Shown in pieces: positions 12,371 to 43,775 of a DNA stretch of 64,000 bases. Source of the stretch: an uncultured Nitrososphaerota archaeon. GTDB taxonomy: Archaea > Thermoproteota > Nitrososphaeria > Nitrososphaerales > CADDZS01. A model generated the notes under the pieces. It did not search any database. It was given only the letters and a program-made list of their open reading frames with translations, and was not told where the DNA came from. Each line of letters starts with the position of its first letter. The first letter of the stretch is position 1. The translations under genes and the position numbers were made by a program. The stretch spans positions 352,001-416,000 of the forward strand of contig CAWCYI010000004.1 of assembly GCA_963799845.1 (NCBI GenBank). The letters are read 5' to 3'.

Positions 12371-14581
12371 CTATTGATTTTTTGAGGAAGATTCGACGGG
12401 TTCCAAATCTCCATGGCTCTTATTTGCTTTTGTCAAGTTTCTAAAGTAGAAGTTTTCAGCATATTCTGTGACCATTCTGCTCGAGCTGAATCTTGGAGTA
12501 AGACTCGACATTGAATGCTTTATCCTGTCTATCCACTTCAAGGGAACACCGTTAGTTCTCTCATAGTATTCCGGAATTACATGGTTTTGCAAGATATCGA
12601 ACAACGACTCGGCATCTTGTCTGTCTTGTAAAATTGGATTTGATGTGTCGGCGCCCGTTCCAATAGCCCACCCATTCGAAGGAGTATAAGCCTCATCCCA
12701 CCAACCATCGAGGATACTCAGGTTGAGCCCGCCGTTGCAGAGGACCTTCATCCCACTGGTTCCAGAAGCTTCCAGAGGTCGCCGCGGATTATTCAGCCAG
12801 AGATCAACTCCCTGAACCATATTTCTAGCGACCGTGATGTCGTAATCTTGCAGAAAAACAATTTTCCCAATCGCCAAATCCCTGTTTGCAAATGAAATAA
12901 TCTCCTGAATTAACTTCTTCCCATCGTGATCTCTGGGATGAGCTTTCCCGGAGAAAACAAACTGCACCGGTCTCTCCTTGTCCAAGAGTAACTGTTCCAG
13001 TCGGGAGTGGTCCGAAAATAACAAGGTCGCCCGTTTGTAAGTGGCAAACCTACGCGCGAATCCAATCGTCAGGGCTTGTTGATTCAAAGAAGGGCGAACG
13101 GTTGGAACTTTCCGGCTGACATATTCCATGAGACGAATCTTTGCTTCAATTCTTGCTTTCCATAGTTTCTCAGCAGGGATTTGTGATATCGGGCGCCACA
13201 CACTCTGCTTCCAAGTTTCGCTCACCCAACTCTTGCCAAGATATTCATCGAGAAGATTTGCCATAGAGTCGGAAATCCACGAAGGTACGTGAACGCCATT
13301 CGTGACCGAGCGCATTCGCGGGCCTGCCCTTGAAGTACCTTTCACCTTGTGGTCTTGATCCTCAAAATCGAAATCCTCCTCCGACAGAACCCTTTCCCAG
13401 AGTTTTCGGGCAACATGCCTGTGCAGGTTTGAAACTCCGTTAATCATCGAGGAGCTTCTGATCGCTAGAACCGCCATGTTGAATCCCGAAGATTCTGGCA
13501 TTTCCTGACCTAGAGAAAATAGGTCATCCATGCTTATCCCTAGTCTTTTTGGATATTGTGAAAGATAATGTTCAATTTGTCCTCGCGTGAAAATATCAAT
13601 TCCAGCTGGCACGGGCGTGTGAGTCGTGAACACACCCGAATTCCTGATAATGGAGCGTGCTTCCGCAAATGATCTCTTAACTTCCTTGTCTTCGAGAACC
13701 TCGGCCATCCTTTCCAGGGCTACAAAACTCGAATGACCTTCATTCATATGATAGACCGAGGGCCTTATGCCGTGCAAACGTAGAAATTTCGCCCCGCCGA
13801 AACCGAGAATTATTTCCTGTTTGATTCTTGTGTCAGTATCTCCTCCGTAAAGCTCTGCTGTGATTTCGCAGTCCTCAGACGAATTCTGACTAGGGATATT
13901 CGTGTCCAAAAGATACAGCGGAATTTTTCCAATTTGAGCTCTCCAAGCTCTTACTTTCACCTCACGATCAGCCAGGGAAACCGAAAAAATAAGAGGGTCT
14001 TCCGAGTCTGACTTCAGGACTGATTCGATTGGAAGCATTGATGGATCATTAGTCGGATAATGCTCCACCTGCCATCCGTCTGAATTGATTACTTGGGAGA
14101 AATACCCCTTCTTGTAGAAGAGTCCGACTCCGACAAGCGGAACACAAAGGTCTGAGGCAGACTTTAGATGATCGCCAGATAGCACGCCGAGCCCCCCGGA
14201 GTATATCTTGAGAAAAGATGCTACTCCAAATTCAGCTGAAAAATATGCGACGAGACCCCCATTCACAGGATCTTCGAACGTTTGCTTAAACCAGCAATTC
14301 GCATTCTCTGACAGATAGTTGTCTTGCAGCGCCGACAGTACTTCCAGCTTTGAAATAAACCCTGAATCGGACTTCAGTTCTTCAAGCCTGGCCGACGAAA
14401 CCGCATTTAGTAACGCCACTGAATTATGATTAGTTTCTTCCCAGAGGACCGGATCAATTGTCTCGAAAAGATTCCTGAGATGCCTATTCCACGTAGAGTA
14501 GAGGTTTGAGGCTAAAAATCCCAGAGCTTCGAGTTCCTTCGGTAATATTGGAATATTGTGAATTTTCTTCGAAGAAATCAA
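12371..14581 (-). CDS. glgP: alpha-glucan (glycogen/maltodextrin) phosphorylase
   Basis: YFSAEFG, YSGGLGVLSGD.LKSASD, HMNEGH, FTTHTPVPAG, ARRFATYKR, EASGTSGMK (PLP lysine). Confidence 0.97.
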   Translation of the reverse strand: MISSKKIHNIPILPKELEALGFLASNLYSTWNRHLRNLFETIDPVLWEETNHNSVALLNAVSSARLEELKSDSGFISKLEVLSALQDNYLSENANCWFKQTFEDPVNGGLVAYFSAEFGVASFLKIYSGGLGVLSGDHLKSASDLCVPLVGVGLFYKKGYFSQVINSDGWQVEHYPTNDPSMLPIESVLKSDSEDPLIFSVSLADREVKVRAWRAQIGKIPLYLLDTNIPSQNSSEDCEITAELYGGDTDTRIKQEIILGFGGAKFLRLHGIRPSVYHMNEGHSSFVALERMAEVLEDKEVKRSFAEARSIIRNSGVFTTHTPVPAGIDIFTRGQIEHYLSQYPKRLGISMDDLFSLGQEMPESSGFNMAVLAIRSSSMINGVSNLHRHVARKLWERVLSEEDFDFEDQDHKVKGTSRAGPRMRSVTNGVHVPSWISDSMANLLDEYLGKSWVSETWKQSVWRPISQIPAEKLWKARIEAKIRLMEYVSRKVPTVRPSLNQQALTIGFARRFATYKRATLLFSDHSRLEQLLLDKERPVQFVFSGKAHPRDHDGKKLIQEIISFANRDLAIGKIVFLQDYDITVARNMVQGVDLWLNNPRRPLEASGTSGMKVLCNGGLNLSILDGWWDEAYTPSNGWAIGTGADTSNPILQDRQDAESLFDILQNHVIPEYYERTNGVPLKWIDRIKHSMSSLTPRFSSSRMVTEYAENFYFRNLTKANKSHGDLEPVESSSKNQ

Positions 14582-14665
14582 AGATCGCGGCTAACGCTCT
14601 GAAAAGAATCCACCGAGAATCGATAATATAGTTTTAGAATCAAGGTTGTGTCCAGCTTGACAGAT

Positions 14666-14899
14666 CTACTCAGTGCAGAGATTTTCGTAGTATCGGCAAA
14701 TGTAGAATTCTTTTATGAATTCTGAAACCCATTTCTCCGGATCAACAATTGTTCCATATGTCACCCGAATGTCGAAGTACCGAATTTTTCTTTCGGACTC
14801 CCTTTCGTGTGAGAAGAACGTTGTGTTCTCAGGCGGAAGTGGATCCGAGAAACAAATGAAATAATAATCGCGCTGAATCAGTTTCCGAACAATTGGCAT
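14666..14899 (-). CDS. hypothetical protein or gene remnant
   Basis: 77-aa ORF in an otherwise empty intergenic stretch, no recognisable motif. Confidence 0.25.
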   Translation of the reverse strand: MPIVRKLIQRDYYFICFSDPLPPENTTFFSHERESERKIRYFDIRVTYGTIVDPEKWVSEFIKEFYICRYYENLCTE

Positions 14900-15007
14900 T
14901 CCTCAGAATTTTTGTTTCTCAAGCATTTCGTCATCAGAAAACGAAAATTAAGTTAGGTCGTTTGTCTGCCACTAAATTAACGTGAATAGCTTAGATTCCA
15001 TGTTATC

Positions 15008-15271
15008 CTAGAGAGCGTTTATATTGCAGTTTTCATTGATTCATTAAGAAAAAATTTTTCTGCGTTTCACACGCGGGCGTGCTTTTTCACTGAAGAGTGA
15101 CGTTCAAGCTCTGTAAGCTCAGAAGAGCTCGTTTCGAGCTGAATGGAGCTTAGAGAGCTCAGAACGAATTGAACGGAGGCATGAAGAAAGTTGTGACGGA
15201 GAGGGGCCCCTAGGGGAGTTCTGCAACCGTGCACGTGTACTCTGCAGATTGCTTTCTAACAGCTCGTTTCA
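15008..15271 (-). repeat. dispersed modular palindromic repeat, copy 1 (modules A-B-C)
   Basis: Reverse complement aligns to 41653-41728 (~90% by hand) and 41922-42003 (5 mismatches in 82 nt), then more loosely to 42094. Confidence 0.92.
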
Positions 15272-15447
15272 CTTAGTCTGAAGCTCGAACAACCGAGTTC
15301 ATACAACTTGAAATCACCAAGCATCGGAGTGACTTCTATATTTTCATGAAAAAGATCAAGCTCGGCAAAATCTTTGTCATATTTCAGACTTCAGAAATTT
15401 GGTCCAAATGCACGACTTTACTGATTTGCAACTTAGACTATTTTCCG

Positions 15448-16323
15448 TCAGATTATTGAGCTGATTATCATTCCGCCAAAAAGGATGAAGAGATATGGAA
15501 GCGATATCAGAAATGCCCTGAACCCATTATCAACCGTGGGATTTTTCAGCATGCGATAATCAACCACGACGAATGCGGCGCCCATCACTATCGCAACAGC
15601 ATAGTAGAATACATCGAAGGTTCCGAGGGCGTGGATCGCGAGCGGAAGTATCGAGAACACTAGGAGAGGAATAGTTGACCAGACTATCCAGTTGATCACC
15701 TCCTTCTGATTTTTCACGACCGGAAGCATCGGGTATCCGGATCTTACGTAATCATCCTTGAATTTCAAAGACAGCCCCCAGAAGTGTGGGGGCGTCCACA
15801 GGAAAACAAGCAAGCCTATGAATATTGAAGGCCATCCGATGCTGTTTCTTATAGCGGCCCAACCCGCGAGCGCCGGGAATACTCCGGCAATTCCACCGAT
15901 CACGATATTCCAGTACGTTCTCGGTTTTAGATAAAGCGTGTACAGGAAAAGGTAGGAAACACTTCCCAGAAAAATCATCAATGCCGTAACGAAGTTAAAC
16001 AGGAAAAACGCGACGGTGAGCCCTAGGCCTATTGATACTACTCCAAAAATCAGCGCGTTCATGGGGGCAATTCTATTGGTCGCAACTGGACGCTGGTCAG
16101 TCCGGCTCATCAATTTGTCTTTGTTTCTTTCAAGATAGTGATTGAGCGCGGCAGAGCCTCCAGACGACAGAATTCCTGCGACGGTGATTCCTGCTATCGC
16201 ACCGAGCTGGGTCGATCTGCCGCCCGCTACAATCATGGCGGTGATGGCTTCCAGAACTAGAAGCACCATTATGCCGGGCTTCGTCAGCTGAACGTATTTT
16301 GTGATGGTTTCCTGCAGTTGCAT
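15448..16323 (-). CDS. cyoE: protoheme IX farnesyltransferase (heme O synthase)
   Basis: LTKPG, N...E...D..M.RT..RP, YT.YLKPRT.WNIVIGG.AG, WTPPHFW.L, DY...G.PMLP. Confidence 0.95.
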   Translation of the reverse strand: MQLQETITKYVQLTKPGIMVLLVLEAITAMIVAGGRSTQLGAIAGITVAGILSSGGSAALNHYLERNKDKLMSRTDQRPVATNRIAPMNALIFGVVSIGLGLTVAFFLFNFVTALMIFLGSVSYLFLYTLYLKPRTYWNIVIGGIAGVFPALAGWAAIRNSIGWPSIFIGLLVFLWTPPHFWGLSLKFKDDYVRSGYPMLPVVKNQKEVINWIVWSTIPLLVFSILPLAIHALGTFDVFYYAVAIVMGAAFVVVDYRMLKNPTVDNGFRAFLISLPYLFILFGGMIISSII

Positions 16324-17238: not shown

Positions 17239-17264
17239 TTCGACGCACTCAGCTTGAAAAGAGC

Positions 17265-17759
17265 TTATGTCGGTTTGGTCACGTCAAATTTAGTATCAAC
17301 CTTGATCATTCCGGTGGCAAGATGAATTTCGGCTTCCCGGACACCGGGGATCGATTTTATCTTCTGCGAAGCTTCGTTCATCGAGTCCATGCTCGGATAG
17401 TGAGCTACCACGATCAAGTCGTGCTTTCCCGTGGCTTGCAAAATATGTTTGGTCTCCTCAAGAACAGCGAGTCTTTCAAAAACGTCCTTCAGCTGGTTTG
17501 GTTCTGTAGTTATCATCATTATCGCCGCAAAAGGAAGGCCGATCAATCTAGGATTCAACAGCGCGGTGAATTCCTTTATGACGCCACTTTTCCTCAGTCT
17601 CTCTATCCTGTAGCGTATGGTATTTTCGTTATAGCCTGTTCTTCTTGAAATCTCAGAAGCAGAGGCCCGCGCATCATCCTGCAAAATCGTTAGCAACTTT
17701 CTATCCAAATCGTCTAGGCTGGGCTGTTTGGATTTTTCCTCGATTACAGTTTCAGTCAA
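17265..17759 (-). CDS. Lrp/AsnC family transcriptional regulator
   Basis: LDDLDRKLL.ILQ.DAR...EI.......T.R.RI.RL...GVI HTH plus RAM domain. Confidence 0.93.
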   Translation of the reverse strand: MTETVIEEKSKQPSLDDLDRKLLTILQDDARASASEISRRTGYNENTIRYRIERLRKSGVIKEFTALLNPRLIGLPFAAIMMITTEPNQLKDVFERLAVLEETKHILQATGKHDLIVVAHYPSMDSMNEASQKIKSIPGVREAEIHLATGMIKVDTKFDVTKPT

Positions 17760-41648: not shown

Positions 41649-42094
41649 AGCTTGAAACGAGCTGATAGAAAGCAATCTGCGGAGTACACACGCACGGTTG
41701 CAGAACTCCCCTTAGGGGGGCCCCTCTCTGTATAATAGCTTGAAACGAGTTTTTCAGTCAAAACGTACGCGCGTGCGTAGAACATAGAGAAAATTCAGTT
41801 CTGCAGTGTAAAGCTCTCGAGCAAAGATCTAGTAAATCGGTTAAAATTTCCGGAACATCCTCGAAAACTCGAAAATCCAATACGAAATGATCAACTCGAG
41901 GATTGTCGGAGAACACTTTTGTGCCTCCGTTCAATTCGTTCTGAGCTCTCTAAGCTCCGTTCAGCTTGAAGCGAGTTCTTCTGAGCTTACAGAGGTTGAA
42001 CGTAGCTCTTCGGCCAAAAAGTGCTCACGTGTGTAGAAACGCAGAAAAAAATTCTATATAAGAATCAATGAAAACTGCGATTTAAGGTCTCGAA
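41649..42094 (+). repeat. dispersed modular palindromic repeat, copy 2 (modules A-C'-spacer-B-C)
   Basis: Inverted homologue of 15008..15271 with a ~190-nt internal insert containing a diverged extra C module; lies between convergent stop codons. Confidence 0.92.
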
Positions 42095-42110: not shown

Positions 42111-43775
42111 CTAAGATTCCGCCTTGACGGTGACTGTCACCGGATCTGCCACGGGTTCGACTGTATTATCTTTCTTTGAGATTAACTCGTTTCCGTCCAC
42201 CCACATCATCTTTCGCTGCAATGTGGAGGTGTAAAGCATCTTCCAATCGAGGCCGACCCTGTTCGCCCAGGTCTTGAATACTCTCGGATCAATGTAGTTT
42301 CGAAGAGAAGTATTCAGATTGTAGTCTCTCGTAATCTTCGTTAGCTCGACCTGTTTTTTCATCTTTGCGACCCGCTCGACCAGCTTTGCTTTCTGTTTAT
42401 CGGTCTTACCGTGCATTTGCTCTAATTCCTTCAGTCGTTCCTCCTTCTTTAAGAGAGACTGCTCGAACGTCTTGGGAGGAGTCCTCTTGTGGTTACACTT
42501 TATCGCAGCTTCCAGATTTGCAAGTTTTGCTTGATACAACTTGTCGAAATCCGGAGTATCTTTTTCGAAAGCGTTGTGGTTTTTCAGATAGGATTTGACG
42601 GCGCTCGTGGCGTGATAAGTTCTGAAGACCTTCGCCGTCAGTCCCGGCGAGGCCCTGCTCAGAAACTCGTTGACGTGACGAGACATGATGCCGTCGAAAA
42701 TCAGGTCATCGGGCTTTTTATCCTTACAGAATTGCCTCAAATTTTCAACTGCCGCCCGGTCCTTTGGCTCAATTTCAAGGGTCTTCTGCCACCTGACGTA
42801 GTCTTTGCCGAAAAAGTCGAAATCTACCGCATTTTCCCTGAACTTCAGGTGCTCGACCCTCAGAGTCGAAGCTCCGACAGTGTCAGCCTCGTCTTCGTCT
42901 TTTTCATCTCCGACCCTCATTGCAAGTTTGTCGATGAGGTAGCACGCGGTTGAAATTCTTCTAATCTTTGGATCCTTCGAGCTCATCGACTTCGAGATAA
43001 AGTTCCTAACTCTGTCTATGCCTTTTTCAAGATCCCGGGCTTTGTCGTACTTTCTTTTGTCACGGGCCTGCCTAATGCTGGAGGAATCGTGGAGCCAGAC
43101 GTACTTGACTTTCTCCGACAGCTTGTCTGTCCAACATGCAATCCACATACAATCCGGGGCATTAATGATCTTCCACTTACCGGGAGGGATAACAGCTGTC
43201 TTGTCCAAGTTGAGGGTAATGTCTTCCTCCTGAATTCCAAGTTTCCAGCGCCCTCTCATAGGATGCTGCCCCCGCCCCATGAATAGACCGGGCGGCTCGA
43301 CCACCCAGTTTGCGATTTCTGTCTTCACACCGTCAACCGTCGCATAACCAAATTTCTCCTTTAGTTCGAGTCTCCTCTTCTTACGTTCCGCCGCAAGAGC
43401 CTTCTTTTGTTCTTTCGTAAGCTCGACTTTTTCGGGGAGCGTCGGAAAGATGATGTCAGAAATCTTCGCCTCTTTGAATTTCTCGGGGAAGAGTTTCACG
43501 AAATCTGAGAGAAAATTGGTCTGAAAAATTGGATCTTCGACGTATGGTGTCCCGATCTTCTTGGACCATGCCACCGCCATCTCTTCCTGGGCCGGGGTCA
43601 TGGTCAGAGGCTCTCCCTTGATCGTAATCCGATTAGTGCGTGGGTCAGATCGATAACGTTCTGGAAAGCTCACTCCAGAATGAGACAAGCTGGACCAATG
43701 TTTTTTCTTTAGCTTTGGCTTTTCGTTTTCTTCCTCGTCGGGAGATTCTTCCTCGACTTGCTCAGTTTGGGACAT
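42111..43775 (-). CDS. top1: DNA topoisomerase IB (eukaryote-like)
   Basis: W..L.H.GV.F, EPPGLF.GRG.HP.RG.WK, MRVGDEKD, FDFFGKD, TAKVFRTY.A, CNH, catalytic TSL.NYIDPR. Confidence 0.96.
   Translation of the reverse strand: MSQTEQVEEESPDEEENEKPKLKKKHWSSLSHSGVSFPERYRSDPRTNRITIKGEPLTMTPAQEEMAVAWSKKIGTPYVEDPIFQTNFLSDFVKLFPEKFKEAKISDIIFPTLPEKVELTKEQKKALAAERKKRRLELKEKFGYATVDGVKTEIANWVVEPPGLFMGRGQHPMRGRWKLGIQEEDITLNLDKTAVIPPGKWKIINAPDCMWIACWTDKLSEKVKYVWLHDSSSIRQARDKRKYDKARDLEKGIDRVRNFISKSMSSKDPKIRRISTACYLIDKLAMRVGDEKDEDEADTVGASTLRVEHLKFRENAVDFDFFGKDYVRWQKTLEIEPKDRAAVENLRQFCKDKKPDDLIFDGIMSRHVNEFLSRASPGLTAKVFRTYHATSAVKSYLKNHNAFEKDTPDFDKLYQAKLANLEAAIKCNHKRTPPKTFEQSLLKKEERLKELEQMHGKTDKQKAKLVERVAKMKKQVELTKITRDYNLNTSLRNYIDPRVFKTWANRVGLDWKMLYTSTLQRKMMWVDGNELISKKDNTVEPVADPVTVTVKAES

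Follow-up and report, generated by a model that had tools for sequence, protein, structure and literature searches.

The window analysed in this study is a stretch of 64,000 nucleotides from an uncultured Nitrososphaerota archaeon, and it carries two copies of one repeated element on opposite strands (Table 1). Three inverted-repeat blocks of 50, 113 and 65 nt, which are 82-91% complementary, join positions 15019-15271 with positions 41653-42085. Each copy contains a core, called modA, and a second module, called modB. Pairwise alignment identified approximately 190 nt between blocks 2 and 3 of copy 2 which are missing from copy 1. The "middle" segment of copy 2 terminates in a second core-like piece (...TTCTC-hairpin-TTTTGAC..GAG/AAAACTCGTTTCAAGCT). 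A blastn search with the modB stretch gave 22 matches in the source assembly (G000), which comprises 4.6 Mb on 9 contigs, is 86.7% complete and has a G+C content of 44-48%.

The core of copy 2 begins 22 nt after the stop codon of a topoisomerase IB gene on the same strand. This topoisomerase, with N-terminal, core and C-terminal domains, is of the eukaryote type, which is typical of Thaumarchaeota. A lone near-copy of the short hairpin unit described below (AGCTTGAAAAGAGCT, one mismatch) lies between two minus-strand ORFs, away from the full elements. Two other readings of the locus were considered and rejected. A coding reading is suggested by the reverse strand of copy 2, where a 57-codon ATG frame crosses the palindrome, but the corresponding frame of copy 1 stops after 7 codons (by eye), and it is further disfavoured by the long-form copies, which differ by indels at that place. 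The 26.7 kb between the two copies was also considered as a mobile or invertible segment. This is without support; the ortholog of copy 2 in the congener G003 is collinear on both sides.

Table 1. Positions of the features described in the text. Numbers without a prefix are window positions; C1, C3, C4 and C6 are contigs of the source assembly.
Feature	Position	Strand	Remarks
Palindrome, copy 1 (66 nt)	15101..15166	+	six AGCT boxes; outer stem, 5x5 internal loop, central unit AGCTCG-TTT-CGAGCT
Palindrome, copy 2	41937..42002	-	two degenerate AGCT boxes, damaged central unit, weak fold
Inverted-repeat block 1	15019-15068 vs 42036-42085
Inverted-repeat block 2	15069-15181 vs 41922-42034		middle of the three; contains the palindrome
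Inverted-repeat block 3	15207-15271 vs 41653-41717
modA, copy 1 (repeat core, short form)	15015..15190	+	nhmmer profile match C4:367015-367190, 179.8 bits
TATA-like TTTATATT in modA, copy 1	15018-15025	+
CATTGATTC in modA, copy 1	15034-15042	+
A6T5 tract in modA, copy 1	15049-15059	+
GC-rich short hairpin, then T run, in modA, copy 1	about 15060-15089	+
End of modA, copy 1		+	...GAACGAATTGAACGGAGGCA, 3' of the palindrome
modB, copy 1	15196..15275	+	GAGAGGGGCCCCTAGGGGAGTTCTGCAACCGTGCACGTGTACTC...; directly behind modA in the short form
modA, copy 2 (long form)	41915..42089	-	nhmmer match C4:394089-393915, 185.2 bits
"Middle" segment, copy 2	41732..41914	-	long-form copies only (about 10 loci; 15-copy alignment)
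modB, copy 2	41653..41731	-	15-mer hairpin unit on both sides
Topoisomerase IB gene	42111-43775	-
Lone hairpin-unit near-copy	17251-17265
Partial 16S rRNA gene	C1:1-826		at contig end
Long-form copy near 16S rRNA gene	C1:1994-2432
tRNA match (locus L006)	L006 1361-1456		on C6
IS200/IS605 pair	C6:728085-729700, C4:749685-751300		tnpA and tnpB
TnpB element	C6:1548156-1548374
Repeat copy L017, transposase ORF upstream	C6:337517-340648
Repeat copy L023, transposase ORF upstream	C6:236535-239648
Source-assembly regions for flanks of G003 copies L061 and L062	C4:1151195-1154212, C6:1054437-1055473, C4:568124-569164
Second repeat family, two of its copies	C3:55640-55760, C6:1516516-1516636

The palindrome of copy 1 contains six AGCT boxes, which start at 15107, 15116, 15126, 15137, 15147 and 15156 and are thus spaced 9-10-11-10-9. 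The initial annotation of this DNA, made from the letters alone, had described these boxes, and a search with the pattern AGCT-N5-AGCT-N6-AGCT-N7-AGCT-N6-AGCT-N5-AGCT recovered them at 15107-15159 with no mismatches. The pattern was matched in none of 100 dinucleotide-preserving shuffles of the window. The second array that had been reported, with identical spacing and two boxes degenerate as AGTT and AGGT, was also recovered, at 41944-41996 with two mismatches; copy 2 is the reverse complement of copy 1. Folded as single-stranded DNA, the 66-mer of copy 1 reaches -20.8 kcal/mol (z -6.3), and none of 200 shuffles folds as well. The fold, with its outer stem, symmetric 5x5 internal loops, inner stem of 6 bp and loop of 3 nt, agrees with the hairpin described in the initial annotation. 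The hairpin of copy 2 has decayed (-12.2 and -12.5 kcal/mol, z about -2), with 7 and 5 of 200 shuffles folding as well. Copy 1 has a rare T at 15144 (GAATG), where 26 of the 28 aligned copies have C. The mirror symmetry of the box spacing adds no extra fact, because any palindrome with a self-complementary 4-mer shows such spacing.

The initial annotation did not recognise that this palindrome forms the core of a repeat scattered over the genome. With a query of 253 nt, 58 matches were obtained in the source assembly. A profile built from 15 full-length copies had 132 matches, many of them second-strand matches on the palindrome, and these reduce to 54 separate loci scoring at least 50 bits. 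Only five of these loci overlap a crude ORF of at least 90 aa; the other 49 overlap none. The loci occupy five of the nine contigs in random orientation. At the 53 scorable loci, the upstream and downstream genes were oriented relative to the element as same/same (16), opposite/opposite (16), convergent (13) or divergent (8), which indicates no fixed relation of the repeat to genes. Among 56 flanking ORFs at 28 loci no recurrent protein family was identified. The domains were unrelated housekeeping domains, the exceptions being Phosphoesterase and PALP, which occurred twice each. A DUF5343-like ORF, whose product the initial annotation had named for a binding assay, was found beside copy 2 only, and its match was weak (23.7 bits, below the cut-off). 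With copies on five contigs in random orientation and no recurrent neighbour family, the proposal of a chromosome-organisation, partition-type or nucleoid site is left without specific support.

Positions 14300-15700 are contained in three DNA runs from one soil metagenome study and in no listed RNA run, and the contigs of these DNA runs show only repeat collapse and other copies. For example, the summed contig depth in run X1 was 6.08 in the flank and increased to 272 over 15099-15145, with contigs breaking at the repeat. One contig joint in these runs is the variant of another copy, and position 15144 is C on all other contigs from them. Two further copies lie near RNA genes. A long-form copy lies approximately 1.2-1.6 kb from a partial 16S rRNA gene at a contig end, upstream of it on the same strand. 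This 16S rRNA gene has its best score with the archaeal model (776 bits) and, together with the topoisomerase, the soil metagenomes and the Nitrososphaerales MAG mentioned below, suggests a host within the Nitrososphaerales that lives in soil. Also, a 96-nt tRNA match, which is long enough for an intron, ends 45 nt before a repeat copy.

The recurring brick of the family is a hairpin unit, (AG)AGCT-N7-AGCT(CT), and its commonest form is AGCTCGTTTCAAGCT. Counted together with its complement, this is the most frequent 15-mer of the source assembly, with 54 exact copies. In all aligned copies the units have AGCT or AGAGCT at their start, and hairpins with AGCT stems are retained in each variant of the family. 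The conserved 5' core consists of an A/T-rich TATA-like box, AGTTCCCATTGATTC (which contains the CATTGATTC element), an A/T tract, CTGCGTTTC with one of three different short GC hairpins, a T run and, as its final part, GAAGAGCT-ACGTTCA-AGCTCTGT. The folds of 13 variants agree solely on the AGAGCT-N7-AGCTCT hairpin, and no conserved multi-stem structure in the 5' core was common to them. The core is followed by a variable tail, which is composed of further AGCT units in either orientation, and the modules "middle" and modB are optional additions. In the "P" tail, two AGCT units of 13-14 nt are inverted around the central unit, and this arrangement produces the six AGCT boxes approximately 10 nt apart and the long hairpin. 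"Q" tails (TCAATTG/CGGAC ... AGCTCGTTTCAAGCT-CTTCTGAGCTTACAGAGCT) hold the reverse complement of the P left arm. Thus, the conserved core supplies the left half of the palindrome, whereas its right half comes from a variable tail.

The mosaic extends to other parts of the element. The central 7-nt loop reads CGTTTCA or TGAAACG within the same context, between otherwise identical stems. Long forms with both "middle" and modB occur at about 10 loci. The modB module ends in the 15-mer at 13 of 17 loci and has the 15-mer at both sides at nine of the 17. The left edge carries several different upstream extensions. Three other repeated sequences of the source assembly, none of which occurs in the window, were observed in the course of this analysis. 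A second repeat family of about 21 copies (the two in Table 1 and approximately 19 other places), which is also present in G003, is laid out like the core of the present repeat and likewise has the hairpin unit at its end (CATTGATTTATTATGC ... TTCTACAC ... CCGAAGAGCTCGTTTCAAGCTCTGTT; read as CATTGATTTATTATGC..TTCTACACGGGGGCGCAATTCTGCGTACCGAAGAGCTCGTTTCAAGCTCTGTT). The 17-mer TAACCTGGCCGACATAA occurs at 35 places as one edge of a longer repeat and, being followed by more than 150 conserved nucleotides on one side only, is probably the end of an insertion sequence. The 12-nt palindrome TTTACTAGTAAA occurs at 40 places and is among the commonest 12-mers, with flanks that are weakly alike.

The distribution of the family was determined in 41 genomes, which were the source assembly, six of the same genus, six of the same family and 28 of the same order. 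Matches were found in four of these: the source assembly, G003 (23 matches), G005 (one weak match) and G029 (one 23-nt match). A longer query gave 34 matches on 29 contigs of G003. A portion of the second family's core, including the hairpin unit, is present nine times in the congener G004, which has no P-type repeat, and once in G012. The hairpin unit thus predates the P palindrome. Among species-representative genomes, the central pattern was limited to 8 contigs of one MAG titled Nitrososphaerales archaeon. The core pattern was identified in 34 metagenome stretches, all from close relatives with flanks 80-87% identical to the source assembly. The palindrome certainly belongs to a modular repeat family that is intergenic and restricted to this lineage, and it represents one copy of the family's core. 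For annotation, repeat masking is appropriate for this palindrome, which should not be counted as a unique regulatory site. Contigs end at this repeat, and the hairpin-unit family would offer a handle on why assemblies of soil Nitrososphaerales break.

Many of the G003 copies are at sites orthologous to copies in the source assembly. In a comparison of 14 such site pairs, based on the first 100 columns, a ranking was obtained for 13. Among these 13 pairs, the ortholog was the most similar source-assembly copy in only two and ranked 10th or worse in eight. Copy positions and module make-up do differ between the species. For example, the G003 ortholog of window copy 2 is a short Q-type copy with a 5' core that is 85% identical, and the remainder of the intergenic region is unalignable. 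At C4:52752 a rare G in AGCTGCGTTCAAGCT, in the unit adjoining the palindrome, is common to both species, but their 5' hairpin variants differ and the source assembly has modB inserted just behind the central unit. The G003 copy L063 has no counterpart at C6:1549913-1549994 of the source assembly, in a diverged intergenic region with blurred edges. Copies at orthologous sites were better conserved than the adjoining intergenic DNA in four of five pairs (0.68-0.88 vs 0.43-0.80), and in two of the five pairs the repeat was more conserved than the coding flanks. One pair, L056 and C6:93541, has only about 7 differences over the first 125 nt or so (by eye). The better conservation of some copies could reflect function rather than selfishness, or homogenisation by gene conversion. 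In addition, two G003 copies, L061 and L062, join flanks that are inverted or on different contigs in the source assembly, where each lies beside a copy of the repeat. These joins could represent recombination between repeats, that is, rearrangement, or chimeric mis-assembly. With two copies joining displaced or inverted flanks, the family would also be a handle on rearrangements between species.

Pairing in the palindrome was analysed with 28 aligned 66-mers. These were taken from 35 distinct 66-mers, seven of which (L016, L005, L010, L052, L092, L101 and L111) were dropped for at least 8 mismatches, an indel or a non-P tail. The hairpin comprises 25 pairs, and 85.1% of their cells are paired, compared to 85.8 +/- 0.3% when partners are shuffled, and 496 of 500 shuffles reach a value as high. 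The covariation score is 0.035, compared to 0.051 in the shuffles, all 500 of which score as high. A compensatory double change was identified in a single cell. The copies owe their pairing to the founder, and it is not protected. On the element strand, G-T mismatches (41) and C-A mismatches (49 of 900 cells) are similar in number, so no one strand is favoured. Rfam gave no match in the window at the gathering score and, at E values up to 1, nothing but the tRNA of L006 in 10 repeat loci. A structured RNA would be recognised by a described family or by compensatory changes, and apart from that single cell neither was found. The cruciform or RNA stem that had been offered as an alternative to a protein site agrees with the sequence: copy 1 folds strongly and AGCT-stem hairpins persist in every variant. 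Taken as a whole, the interpretation given in the initial annotation is partly supported.

Conservation by column was assessed in a set of 36 copies. The AGCT boxes are 97.6% conserved, compared to 86.1% for the other columns. Conservation is equally high in the two internal loops CAGAAG and GAACGG, which are unpaired, and the boxes thus do not stand out by their identity. Most of the variation falls within the central loop, the right-hand spacer and the right flank. The initial annotation had taken loss of spacing and pairing at the neutral rate in other copies as its refutation, and on this point the outcome is mixed, as the boxes are well conserved while pairing is not protected and many copies have a different 3' tail and spacing. 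The sequence AGCT itself is not avoided in the source assembly (20,817 copies, observed/expected 1.10), and avoidance of, or a decoy for, an AGCT restriction enzyme was rejected for this reason.

A search for a mover of the repeat gave no candidate. The source assembly has two Y1_Tnp genes, both adjoining tnpB in IS200/IS605 copies. IS200/IS605 or RAYT was rejected as the mover, since the ends of the IS copies carry other hairpins, unlike the repeat; the comparison with a parent IS covered IS200/IS605 alone. No gene with family members on both sides was found. Y1_Tnp was found in none of five congeners, including G003 (61% complete), although at completeness values of 58-87% this does not prove absence. 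No target-site duplication was identified at the edges of 18 P-type copies, at the left edges of 40 copies or in a filled/empty pair. By eye there is a weak subterminal match, in which TCCCATTGATTCATT agrees with the complement of AACGAATTGAACGGA at about 10 of 15 positions, and both ends of the element are fuzzy and differ between subfamilies. Without clean terminal inverted repeats or target duplications, and with fuzzy ends, transposition is not demonstrated. A viral or proviral origin was also rejected, as two scans of viral contigs gave three unrelated terminator hairpins and no matches to the repeat.

Several other mobile sequences were recorded. The two IS200/IS605 copies, each with tnpA and tnpB, are 93-96% identical, and the source assembly has 15 TnpB-type matches in all. 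An unrelated segment of about 515 nt beside the IS200/IS605 copies has about 10 further copies. One TnpB element lies in a stretch of the source assembly for which the orthologous G003 flank has no counterpart. ORFs for IS110-type and IS66-type transposases lie directly upstream of two repeat copies, L017 and L023, and the 5' end of the L017 copy is truncated, as would result from insertion of the IS into the repeat. Two viral contigs from related phages (L089 and L091) share one terminator-like hairpin with its loop flipped (TGTTTCA vs TGAAACA), which is an independent example of a loop flip.

The element is probably a selfish or neutral mosaic repeat of soil Nitrososphaerales, similar to REP, BIME and BOX elements and reshuffled at the DNA level at AGCT hairpin units. 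The evidence for this reading consists of the many copies, their intergenic placement and random orientation, their occurrence in few species of one genus, the mosaicism and loop flips, the exchange of modules at orthologous sites and the lack of compensatory evolution. Reshuffling would proceed through ectopic recombination or gene conversion as well as through template switching mediated by hairpins or cruciforms, and its junctions would fall at the AGCT units. Spread of the repeat may need an enzyme, for which the search described above gave no candidate, and the repeat would behave as selfish or neutral DNA. The 10-nt rhythm of the boxes and their mirror symmetry are most likely by-products of the joining of units. 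The T runs on both strands may, together with the hairpins, incidentally act as transcription stops. A point against this reading is that the unit may be transcribed, given the TATA-like box at the start of the core and the canonical TTTATATA of the related module in G004.

The transcription stops could instead be the reason the repeat persists, as a co-opted two-way terminator or insulator between genes. Oligo-T stops archaeal RNA polymerase, and the element has oligo-T on both strands (A6-7/T4-7; a hairpin, then T5) with stable hairpins that would protect 3' ends. At least one gene 3' end faces the element at 45 of the 53 scored loci, the other eight lying between divergent starts. Where the upstream gene is co-oriented, the element often begins approximately 20-130 nt past the stop codon, as in copy 2 (22 nt), and the conservation of several orthologous copies exceeds that of the intergenic DNA beside them. 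However, tandem, convergent and divergent contexts in the ratio 32/13/8 are close to the expectation for any intergenic insertion, and the element can be missing from orthologous intergenic regions. A T run alone would suffice for a stop, so the mosaic tails, modB and the flipping loops are unexplained, and co-option as a terminator is considered unlikely. A transcribed function of another kind, a family of small RNA genes, appears more doubtful still. The core would have a putative archaeal promoter (a TATA-like box after ATTGATT), and the transcript would contain the AGAGCU-N7-AGCUCU hairpin and the long hairpin. In agreement with this, A/T-rich TATA-like octamers are present at a fixed place in three related core types, and the 5' core is better kept than the tail. 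In G004, copy L129 (G004:C1, 1500-1600, minus strand) has the canonical TTTATATA approximately 50 nt upstream of its hairpin unit (AGAAGAGCTCGTTTCAAGCTCTGTT), a placement which hints that the module may be transcribed. However, a small RNA does not agree with the Rfam results or the lack of covariation. The central loop occurs both ways round, so the same strand has U-G in some copies and C-A in others. Also, the upstream structure is inconsistent among variants, and T5-7 runs lie just downstream of any plausible start of the putative promoter.

The phased array of the initial annotation can be restated for a mobile carrier, in which case a dimeric DNA-binding or chromatin protein would read AGCT-N5-7-AGCT on one face of the helix. 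The box spacing of 9-11 nt is helical. The consensus has a seventh box upstream, in GAAGAGCT, which gives spacings of 11, 9, 10, 11, 10 and 9 (mean 10.0), and Q-type tails retain spacings near 10 or 20 nt. The boxes are also more conserved than the other columns, and the right-hand unit spacer varies freely without compensation in the left arm. Against this, the equal conservation of the loops CAGAAG and GAACGG indicates that variation follows the segment and not the distinction of box and spacer. AGCT is common and not avoided, and no candidate protein recurs among the 56 ORFs at 28 loci. The 54 randomly oriented loci on five contigs are unlike a partition site and are not confined to a regulon. 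Judged from the sequence, such an array is improbable to about the same degree as the small RNA.

A bolder version of the preferred reading, the selfish or neutral mosaic repeat, is that this is the first REPIN/BIME-type replicator described in Archaea, with AGCT-stem units recognised by a putative archaeal enzyme that is not of the Y1/RAYT type. The units would be extruded as single-stranded DNA or cruciforms, and the enzyme would copy, flip and insert modules at hairpins. This version is speculative and is not considered likely. If it is true, each new copy could seed a promoter or terminator between genes, given its TATA-like box and two-way T runs. In either version, a mosaic of hairpin units without terminal inverted repeats, target-site duplications or a RAYT would provide a handle on how archaeal chromosomal repeats arise and are reshuffled. 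Interspersed palindromic repeats are well studied in bacteria. The archaeal record consists mainly of MITEs with terminal inverted repeats, as far as the consulted portion of one source describes it (PMC10969869). A limited search of the literature on Thaumarchaeota and Nitrososphaerales gave no such repeat among the matches listed.

The repeat shares several features with REP and BIME of enterobacteria and with the REPIN-RAYT system of Pseudomonas, as these are described in parts of two sources (PMC2817692, PMC3337134). These systems are also short, imperfect palindromes with high copy number in intergenic DNA, and their units alternate with variable linkers, two inverted units forming a longer hairpin in REPINs. 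In addition, many of their copies persist at orthologous sites. The repeat studied here has 54 exact 15-mer units and 54 loci, 49 of which have no ORF overlap, and its P-type copies contain the inverted units, as seen in the fold of copy 1. However, the GTAG or CGTC tag given in an excerpted source (PMC3733652) is missing from its units, which have AGCT or AGAGCT at their start. The repeat also differs from these systems in its archaeal host, in its long conserved non-palindromic 5' core and in that no single-copy Y1 (RAYT) gene flanked by units was found in the source assembly.

BOX elements of Streptococcus pneumoniae are modular boxA-boxB-boxC repeats. The repeat resembles them in having conserved end modules with internal modules that vary in number or choice, and the P and Q tails, three 5' hairpin variants, optional "middle" and optional modB are a mosaic of the BIME and BOX kind. 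BOX elements are also intergenic, fold strongly and have an unclear mover, according to the part of the source that treats them (PMC3049150). However, there is no sequence relation to BOX elements, which belong to another domain of life, and in the archaeal repeat modules invert and loops flip.

MITEs are defined by terminal inverted repeats, target-site duplications and a parent IS. Archaeal MITEs (Sulfolobus SM1-SM4, Halobacterium and Haloquadratum) resemble the repeat in being non-coding, in measuring 100-450 nt and in having tens of copies per genome, for example 25-44 copies in the Sulfolobus SM families, as reported in the part of the source concerned with them (PMC10969869). The repeat differs from MITEs in that no target duplication, clear terminal inverted repeats or parent IS was found, IS200/IS605 being the only IS compared. 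Hairpin-loop inversions, which are small inversions flanked by inverted repeats, are found in terminator hairpins and in the spacers of chloroplast DNA. In the same manner, stems of the repeat that are otherwise identical carry the 7-nt loop as CGTTTCA or TGAAACG, but hairpin-loop inversion is a mutational process whereas this is an element family. Lacking the tag and RAYT of REPIN-RAYT systems and the target-site duplication of MITEs, the repeat is thus filed as a variant of the interspersed palindromic mosaic repeats in an archaeal lineage. In general terms this is a familiar kind of repeat DNA, and the palindrome is not a unique site for organising the chromosome.
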